Part shown: in pieces, positions 37,299 to 38,100 of the stretch
How positions within the stretch are numbered: position 1 is the stretch's first letter
Layout of the letters: the number at the start of each line of letters is the position of its first letter
Assembly: GCF_039545135.1 (NCBI RefSeq)
Contig: NZ_BAABRU010000004.1
Span: 322,427-386,426, forward strand
Source: Herpetosiphon gulosus
Lineage (GTDB): Bacteria; Chloroflexota; Chloroflexia; Chloroflexales; Herpetosiphonaceae
DNA: 64,000 bases
Direction: 5' to 3'
Translations under genes and position numbers: made by a program
The notes under the pieces: generated by a model
Told to the model about the DNA's origin: nothing
Database searches by the model: none
The model's input: the letters and a program-made list of their open reading frames with translations, nothing else

Positions 37299-37469
37299 TT
37301 GTTTACTACTACCCTTTCGTGAGTGCTATTCACCTTGACTCCCCTGATGGTTGGAAACGTTTTCTCAACCAGAAGGACTATGGTTTTAGAGTACAATTTC
37401 AAGTTAACCAACTAATTTACCCAACTTGGTTCGTTGTAAGTAGAACGTTTTGGTAATGTTGAACGTTCC

Positions 37470-37778
37470 TAGAAAATATTCTTTAAGCTACTTTTTAACA
37501 TTGCGCTAACAGTAGTTACTGGTTGGTCTAGGCTAACATCAACCATTCCAAGGATAAATTTACGCCACAATTTCCCCAACTATTTTCTTTGGGGCACATC
37601 AACCACTGCCTCGCAAATTGCAGGCACTTGGCACTATGTTGGCAACGGTGAGAGCTTTCGATTTGACATTGCCAACACGCCAGAGACGATTCGCCCCAAG
37701 CATAATGGTTATCTTGCCAACGATCACTATCACCTCGATCGAACAAGCAAATATCGATCCATGGCTATGTATGTATGA
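37470..37778 (+). pseudogene. Relic N-terminal fragment of a GH1 beta-glucosidase (no start codon, ~100 codons then stop)
   Basis: The frame opening after TAG at ~37467 translates to ...HNFPNYFLWGTSTTASQIAGTWHYVGNGESFRFDIANTPETIRPKHNGYLANDHYHLDRT. This matches the GH1 N-terminal consensus (FP.dFlWG.atAayQiEG ... G.siWD.f.h.P..i..g.nGdvAcDhYHry). It is truncated by a stop at 37776-37778, and no downstream GH1 sequence follows. Confidence 0.45.
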
Positions 37779-37799
37779 TTGGAAATTTTAGGCTACTAA

Positions 37800-38100
37800 C
37801 GAGGGGGATTTAGGCTGAGGGGCCAAATTTGATCCACGAAGGGCACGAAGAAGCACGAAGTTGAGGTTAGGGGCTAGGTTTCAGGAATCAGGGGCCAGCA
37901 GTAACACAGAGGCGCAGAGCATGGCTATAGTTTCATGGCTATAGGCGATCGGAACAATTGTTGCCATTTCAAGAAATCTCTGATAGTCAAGAGCCAATAG
38001 CCCTCATGCTCTGCGCCTCTGCGTTAAAGCTTCGCGCTCTTCGCGTTCTTCGCGGATCAAACTTAACTGACCCCTAGCCTCTGAACCCTGATCCCTCGTG
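37800..38100. repeat. ~300-bp compound palindromic element: nested inverted pairs of modules C, A and E around a unique core
   Basis: gatccacgaagggcacgaagaagcacgaag (37831) pairs with cttcgcgctcttcgcgttcttcgcggatc (38029). aggggccagcagtaacacagaggcgcagagcatggctatag pairs with ctcatgctctgcgcctctgcgttaaag. ggggctaggtttcaggaatcagggg pairs with gacccctagcctctgaaccctgatccc. Confidence 0.8.

Follow-up and report, generated by a model that had tools for sequence, protein, structure and literature searches.

Between a gene for a long-chain fatty-acid--CoA ligase (fadD-like) and one for a deoxyhypusine-synthase-like protein (dhs), a 64,000-nucleotide (nt) stretch of Herpetosiphon gulosus DNA (hereafter the window, numbered from its first letter) carries a short sequence resembling the N terminus of glycoside hydrolase family 1 (GH1) enzymes. 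We read this sequence as the non-functional remnant, approximately the first quarter, of a GH1 beta-glucosidase gene; the whole gene would have been truncated in the ancestor of the genus, with independent decay in each lineage afterward, and we give this reading a probability of roughly 85%. It is carried by homology to GH1, orthologous position, a common truncation point, independent lesions, the absence of coding constraint, and lineage-specific repeats, and we infer that no functional product comes from the remnant. The pseudogene is old and ordinary, and the palindromic repeat beside it did not break it recently. The parts of the remnant in the window are as follows.

37473-37778 (+), open frame of 101 codons found by translation, with its TGA at 37776-37778
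37550-37554 (+), AAGGA, retained Shine-Dalgarno sequence, 7 nt ahead of the ancestral GH1 start codon
37562-37564 (+), ancestral start codon, ACG in the window, placed by alignment of eight loci
37562-37736 (+), first GH1 piece, residues ~1-58 (FPNYFLWG...NGYLANDHYHL), PF00232 positions 3-58
37737-37746 (+), scar of a ~126-nt internal deletion common to the aurantiacus/gulosus clade, from the alignment
37747-37782 (+), second GH1 piece, ANIDPWLCMYDW, in a different frame, approximately GH1 residues 108-121 (residues 109-122 of P0188)

An earlier note, made from the letters alone, had described a decayed GH1 N-terminal fragment in a frame of about 100 codons without a start codon, opening at about 37470. 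The assignment was borne out when the translation of the frame (...NFPNYFLWGTSTTASQIAGTWHYVGNGESFRFDIANTPETIRPKHNGYLANDHYHLDRTSKYRSMAMYV, also given as ...RINLRHNFPNYFLWGTSTTASQIAGTWHYVGNGESFRFDIANTPETIRPKHNGYLANDHYHLDRTSKYRSMAMYV) was searched with PF00232, which matched at E=1.3e-9 and 37.4 bits (gathering cutoff 22.6) over profile positions 3-58 of 453. The best NCBIfam model was TIGR03356, "GH1 family beta-glucosidase" (34 bits; models of 6-phospho-beta-glucosidases scored 12-14 bits), and approximately 150 solved GH1 chains matched the fragment, the best at E=3e-9. In tblastn with full-length GH1 proteins, the first piece aligned over residues 5-58 at 48% identity, and the second piece, ANIDPWLCMYDW, corresponded to the ...GIxPxVTLYHWD... 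strand of GH1. The missing start was also confirmed: no ATG, GTG, or TTG lies upstream in the frame, its only two in-frame ATGs are near the 3' end (the Ms of ...SMAMYV), and the listing of open reading frames with ATG, GTG, or TTG starts reports nothing there. The proposed origin near 37470 was right for the open frame and wrong for the GH1 homology, which spans 37562-37782 (+), starts at the ancestral start codon, and continues into its second piece in another frame. The window copy carries a +1-nt insertion within 37570-37577, soon after the ancestral start codon, and it is because of this insertion that the open frame appears to run upstream without a start. The RefSeq protein WP_345721385.1 ("family 1 glycosylhydrolase," 74 amino acids [aa]) is identical to the translation of 37554-37778 read from an ATA codon.

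We compared the window with seven other loci, reached via cluster members of fadD. Four came from named species, H. aurantiacus DSM 785 (L085), H. geysericola (L081), H. giganteus (L088), and H. llansteffanensis (L090), and the others were a Chloroflexota metagenome-assembled genome (MAG; L091, with a gap identical to that of the JGI metagenome contig L092) and two metagenome assemblies (L082 and L093); together, the eight loci cover all five named Herpetosiphon species. The gene order was the same in all eight (fadD, a gene of 72-74 aa on the opposite strand, the gap with the remnant, dhs, and Tex), with 0.93-1.47 kilobases (kb) between the stop codons of fadD and dhs, the small gene included. 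The GH1 remnant was found at the same place in every one of them. The earlier note had looked to related loci for an intact GH1 gene between the fadD-like and dhs genes; none of the eight Herpetosiphon loci has one, and the relatives have the same short gap, which speaks against a recent disruption. The GH1 match is not due to chance, since the same remnant stands at the orthologous position in the seven other loci and the copy in H. geysericola is longer: its frame-stitched peptide matched PF00232 over positions 11-119 (E=5e-16, 58.5 bits).

The signals for the start of a gene could be followed through the alignment. The ancestral start codon is ATG in five of the seven other genomes and CTG in two, and the ATG copies give MP(Q/H)FPNYFLWG..., a canonical GH1 start. 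In the Shine-Dalgarno-like motif ahead of it, GGA does not vary in any of the eight loci, nor does the TAAAT that follows, while the first two bases vary in the clade far from the window (AAGGA, CCGGA, and CAGGA). The lesions downstream differed from lineage to lineage. H. aurantiacus has a TAG stop (NG*LAND); L082 has this H. aurantiacus-type TAG together with a TGA; L091 and L093 have the same TAG stop and two frameshifts; H. geysericola and H. giganteus have several stops and small deletions; and H. llansteffanensis has a deletion of ~60 nt. The frame that is open in the window is interrupted by stops or frameshifts in all seven other loci.

The eight loci fall into two clades, aurantiacus/gulosus, to which the window belongs, and geysericola/giganteus/llansteffanensis. 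At the four-fold degenerate sites of fadD, dhs, and Tex, divergence is 0.23 in the window's clade and 0.21 in the other, and it reaches 0.37 when the two are compared. The ~126-nt deletion is restricted to the window's clade, in which the interval from ...DHYHL to ...AAGCAAATATCG is 9 nt, compared with 134-137 nt in the other; the additional bases of the latter encode ...LVGQQLGLNAERFLASWTRI.P...AIDQTELDV.WRFLESLC.ANIDPWLYMY. The 3' end of the remnant, on the other hand, is the same in both clades. In 8/8 loci, GH1 similarity ends at the same residue (~121), right after the ...YMY(D)W strand, and tblastn with six full-length GH1 proteins, covering all frames of the gap in the eight genomes, found no similarity past residue ~122; the regions that would carry both catalytic glutamates are missing from all eight. 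Since the truncation point is common to the two clades, the loss of the 3' three-quarters of the gene probably predates their split, i.e., the radiation of the genus.

GH1 enzymes have a complete (beta/alpha)8 domain of ~450 residues, with the acid/base Glu in a T-x-N-E-P motif (~residue 165) and the nucleophile Glu in I/V-T-E-N-G (~residue 350). The N-terminal signature of the family (PROSITE PS00653) is F-x-[FYWM]-[GSTA]-x-[GSTA]-x-[GSTA](2)-[FYNH]-[NQ]-x-E-x-[GSTA]. The remnant resembles GH1 beta-glucosidases (PF00232, TIGR03356) in that its N-terminal 58 residues and the ...IxPxxxLYxW strand align with them. It differs in that approximately a quarter of the domain is left (positions 3-58 and a 12-residue piece at ~110-120), both catalytic-glutamate regions are absent, and neither a usable start codon nor a frame conserved among the orthologues is present. 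At the signature, the window reads F-L-W-G-T-S-T-T-A-S-Q-I-A-G-T, with S at the [FYNH] position and A for the conserved E, so that the conserved Q-I-E-G is Q-I-A-G. As judged from its sequence, the remnant is homologous to GH1 and would not be a working member by any of domain, catalytic motifs, signature, start codon, or frame.

Coding constraint was absent as well. The variable sites of the remnant are distributed over the three codon positions as 5:10:8 in the close clade (p=0.42, no bias) and 8:9:15 over all eight loci, and in the same genomes those of the 74-aa gene are distributed as 21:3:2, i.e., this gene is strongly conserved. Because there is no codon-position bias and the lesions interrupt the frame, a conserved protein product is ruled out, and the unbroken 74 codons of the window look like an accident of the lesions that this lineage collected. 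Two metagenome gene calls over the remnant, P0286 (167 aa) and P0287 (83 aa; loci L094 and L095), are annotation artifacts with no real product. P0286 is an H. aurantiacus-type remnant read through the TAG stop into the repeat tract and antisense dhs, and P0287 is the remnant in a shifted frame. These two calls and the RefSeq 74-aa record with its ATA start should thus be corrected to a pseudogene remnant.

We also searched for an intact relative from which the origin of the gene could be read. No close intact homologue was found among 1.84 billion representatives searched with HMMER, where the best match had ~48% identity over 56 aa, and a homologue search with the fragment alone returned the RefSeq copy only. 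A profile of the stitched remnants, run against 5.8 billion proteins, matched the same remnant mis-called in metagenomes and then ordinary GH1 proteins at 36-44%; the best identity to any real GH1 was 40-48% in the libraries searched. P0286, the top match to the stitched-remnant alignment, was considered as a longer relative and rejected, as it is the mis-called remnant and the DNA of its locus does not translate to P0286. Within the 64-kb window there is no intact GH1 paralogue, and the inverted-repeat pair I21 at 22163 is a chance one. The outgroup fadD locus (74% identity) has no shared neighbors and no intact GH1, and no GH1 lies within 10 kb of the dhs-like genes among the 80 loci listed, which are from other phyla with no Herpetosiphon among them.

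The DNA after the truncation point has a different history from the remnant. It is occupied by one feature.

37783-38101 (unstranded), fast-evolving tract of short repeat modules reaching to the dhs stop codon, with a nested palindrome of ~300 nt at 37799-38100 in the window

The earlier note had placed the decayed fragment directly beside a palindrome, and so it is: as single-stranded DNA, 37790-38105 folds into a long imperfect hairpin with nested arms (-67.5 kcal/mol, z=-6.6, 0/100 shuffles as stable). No second full-length copy of the 300-nt palindrome is present in the window; individual modules of the tract recur at at least five other intergenic sites within it. We noted the same set of modules in intergenic DNA at 6685-6850, 17095-17325, 26759-26893, 31100-31235, 32731-32890, 41300-41520, 56460-56545, and 60100-60300, the types being CACGAAG runs, GGGG(C/T)(C/T)AG, GGATGAAGG, GGCTATnGG, and GGGTGAGGG, with inverted pairs frequent. 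In 8/8 genomes, the dhs stop codon is immediately followed by modules; seven have a TATGTTCTATG-type module there, and that of the window is CTGACCCCTAGCCTCTGAACCCTGATCCCT, which is the outer arm of the palindrome (38060-38101). Between the clades, the tract is already different at the first base following ...TATGTAT, whole modules have been gained or lost even between close relatives, and its alignable part varies at the synonymous level in the close clade (59/134 columns, 44%). The core (central part) of the palindrome is missing in H. aurantiacus DSM 785, and the outer arms seen in the window (~37870-37925 and ~38060-38100) are not in its nearest relatives. Since the truncation point is the same in eight loci while the content of the tract is species specific, the 300-nt palindrome is younger than the truncation, a recent, lineage-specific build-up in a tract already filled with repeats, and hence could not be what truncated the gene. 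The comparison thus sets the adjacent palindrome aside as the cause of the gene loss, and it also shows a much quicker turnover in Herpetosiphon repeat tracts than in the unique DNA adjoining them. In the literature, we found no description of these repeat modules or of this locus in Herpetosiphon. Compared with REP/BIME-like (repetitive extragenic palindromic/bacterial interspersed mosaic element) and MITE-like (miniature inverted-repeat transposable element) intergenic palindromic repeats (surveyed, e.g., in PMC3733652), the tract is likewise intergenic, palindromic, made of short recurring modules, and placed directly after a stop codon. It differs in being a mosaic of several module types with no single repeat unit established, and neither terminal inverted repeats with target-site duplication nor a GTAG/CGTC tag was established in it.

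On the other side of the remnant, the DNA is very well kept.

37299-37550 (unstranded), intergenic DNA, highly conserved in the alignment, separating the small gene from the divergent GH1 remnant
37343-37376 (unstranded), hairpin 45-80 nt upstream of the start of the small gene, its apical GGAAACGTTTTC invariant in eight genomes

In the close clade, 18/252 columns (7%) of 37299-37550 are variable, compared with 324/710 four-fold sites (46%), and no other non-coding DNA of the locus is as conserved. A block at 37494-37535 is almost invariant (3/30 variable columns over 37499-37528 in the eight loci). The stem of the 37343-37376 hairpin is kept through differing complementary pairs (TGGTTG/CAACCA, CTTGCTGG/CCAGCAAG, CTTGATGG/CCATCAAG, and CCGCT/AGCGG), with folding energies of -10.9 to -14.8 kcal/mol for the four sequence variants. 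The region holds three AACGTT cores, at 37356, 37444, and 37462. A LacI-type operator was considered for these palindromes and rejected, as GAAAACGTTTTC with at most two mismatches is no commoner in the window than in shuffles. A promoter scan gave nothing convincing for the remnant or the small gene, and no clear promoter in 37299-37550.

Taken together, the findings suggest the following course of events. A GH1 beta-glucosidase gene would once have occupied this place, with its transcription and that of the 74-aa gene diverging. The ancestor shared by the sampled Herpetosiphon species would have lost everything past residue ~121, including the part with both catalytic glutamates. The remaining 5' end would then have decayed separately in each lineage, with H. 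gulosus losing the start codon and gaining the +1 insertion, other lineages acquiring stops and frameshifts, and the aurantiacus/gulosus clade sharing the ~126-nt deletion. Short repeat modules of quick turnover, which in the window form the 300-nt palindrome, would have come to fill the DNA as far as the dhs stop codon. An intact gene probably existed at this same locus and decayed in place, since its Shine-Dalgarno sequence and start codon have been retained together with the conserved, divergent region upstream. Three observations weigh against this course. An intact gene at this locus was seen in no sampled genome, be it the eight loci, the outgroup fadD locus, the 80 dhs loci, or a metagenome scan with the small gene, a sampling limited in close outgroups. 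The window copy, alone among the loci, has 74 codons open, and RefSeq names a protein for it. Moreover, in the close clade 34/230 columns of the remnant are variable (14.8%), compared with 324/710 four-fold sites (45.6%; Fisher p=2e-18), which a purely neutral relic does not predict.

The last of these observations is the basis of the alternative that we take most seriously, namely, that the remnant DNA, with the conserved upstream region and its hairpin, was recruited as functional non-coding sequence in the aurantiacus/gulosus clade. It is compatible with a pseudogene origin, and we regard it as possible, if rather doubtful. The recruited role might be that of a structured leader, promoter, or regulatory RNA for the minus-strand 74-aa gene, or that of a transcript made on the plus strand from the former GH1 promoter, ending in the palindrome or running antisense to dhs. 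The low variability of the remnant beside a repeat tract that varies at the synonymous level, the still stronger conservation of 37299-37550 with a stem kept through different sequences, and the modest folding z-scores of the remnant region (-2.5 for the plus strand and -2.8 for the minus strand) all fit such a role. However, covariation contributes a negligible -0.14 kcal/mol across the whole upstream region, and a search of 36900-38250 against Rfam at E<=1 matched no family, the sole hit being an L20 leader below threshold at the terminator hairpin next to fadD. Furthermore, the remnant is near-neutral in the geysericola clade (75/287 columns variable, 26%, versus 224/727 four-fold sites, 31%; p=0.15), where it also bears large deletions such as the ~60-nt one in H. 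llansteffanensis, and the contrast in the close clade comes from n=5 close sequences compared with four-fold sites rather than with genome-wide intergenic DNA. The low variability may reflect reuse of dead DNA (as leader, promoter, or antisense), or unique intergenic DNA may be generally constrained in these genomes. If real, the conservation would mean that pseudogene DNA is reused in a non-coding role, and this is the sole point of wider interest at the locus; recruitment would also explain why the fragment outlived speciation and why it is threefold more conserved than synonymous sites.

The other alternatives account for less of the evidence. The lack of an intact orthologue at the locus, the lack of synteny at the nearest outgroup fadD locus, and the restriction of the small gene to Herpetosiphon would all agree with a 5' fragment that had come by partial duplication or horizontal transfer into the genus ancestor, there never having been a whole GH1 here. 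We consider this unlikely, given that the similarity starts exactly at a Shine-Dalgarno-like sequence and ATG behind a conserved 250-nt upstream region shared with the divergent gene, and that no donor above 48% identity turned up in the libraries searched. It is less likely still that the gene was cut or deleted by insertion of the 300-bp compound palindrome, a version that follows the suggestion of the earlier note and would make the locus a case of repeat-driven remodeling in action. In support, the remnant ends where the repeat tract starts in every genome, and module kinds of the same sort lie at another synteny break, at ~35255 upstream of fadD. The proposal fails on the comparison of loci, since the truncation point is identical in all eight and is followed by clade-specific sequence from the first base, the closest relatives do not have the arms at 37870-37925 and 38060-38100, and H. 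aurantiacus is without the core; some earlier repeat might have caused the truncation. Least credible of all is a live gene for the 74-aa protein as annotated in RefSeq. In its favor are the 101 open codons of the window and the existence of the protein record, but the only start is an ATA, ACG stands in place of the ancestral ATG with a frameshift behind it, the frame is broken in 7/7 other loci, there is no excess of third-position substitutions, and translation would yield one-eighth of a TIM barrel without a catalytic residue.

The preferred reading, an old GH1 pseudogene eroded stepwise, makes the locus a small, clean case of such erosion over one genus. Bacterial pseudogene remnants left by deletional decay have been surveyed (PMC2916853 and PMC6054270), and the Herpetosiphon remnant resembles them in its homology to a functional family, in its independent stops, frameshifts, and deletions, in the absence of a codon-position signal, and in becoming progressively shorter (from 350 nt to 220 nt). 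The abstract of PMC6054270 describes bacterial pseudogenes as quickly purged, from which this remnant differs by surviving across clades that differ at 37% of four-fold sites and by being, in one clade, more conserved than synonymous sites. Its genus-wide persistence is mildly unusual in this light, without being a new kind of thing.

The genes and signals flanking the remnant complete the layout of the locus.

35390-37018 (+), long-chain fatty-acid--CoA ligase (fadD-like), 542 aa, upstream flank, Pfam AMP-binding and AMP-binding_C
37028-37056 (unstranded), terminator-like hairpin with a perfect 13-bp stem between the convergent fadD and small genes, kept in all loci
37074-37298 (-), conserved 74-aa gene, called in all Herpetosiphon loci
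38102-39079 (-), deoxyhypusine-synthase-like or homospermidine-synthase-like protein, 325 aa, downstream flank, Pfam PF01916

The fadD-like product is H. gulosus WP_345721335.1, identical over 542 residues. From this gene to dhs there are 1083 bases, which the earlier note had taken as a 1.1-kb repeat-rich non-coding gap. The size was right; the repeats are confined to 37783-38101, and the gap is not wholly non-coding, as it contains the 74-aa gene and the terminator-like hairpin. The 74-aa gene is convergent with fadD and divergent from the GH1 remnant. It has no match in Pfam, NCBIfam, or PDB, and it was not found outside Herpetosiphon, the metagenome scan with the small-gene alignment returning only an already known Herpetosiphon contig. 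The C terminus of the dhs-like protein is identical across the eight loci, and its NCBIfam matches are far under the cutoffs for both deoxyhypusine synthase and homospermidine biosynthesis protein. We also observed that this protein is 70-80% identical across Acidobacteriota, Gemmatimonadota, Verrucomicrobiota, Bacteroidota, and others, an unusually high conservation across phyla. Finally, the synteny break upstream of fadD, at ~35255 (window 35081-35320), is a point where homology to H. aurantiacus resumes within a tract of repeat modules; the window and one MAG have alcohol-dehydrogenase-like and DUF4938 genes at this break, and the other Herpetosiphon genomes have a gene for a major facilitator superfamily (MFS) transporter.

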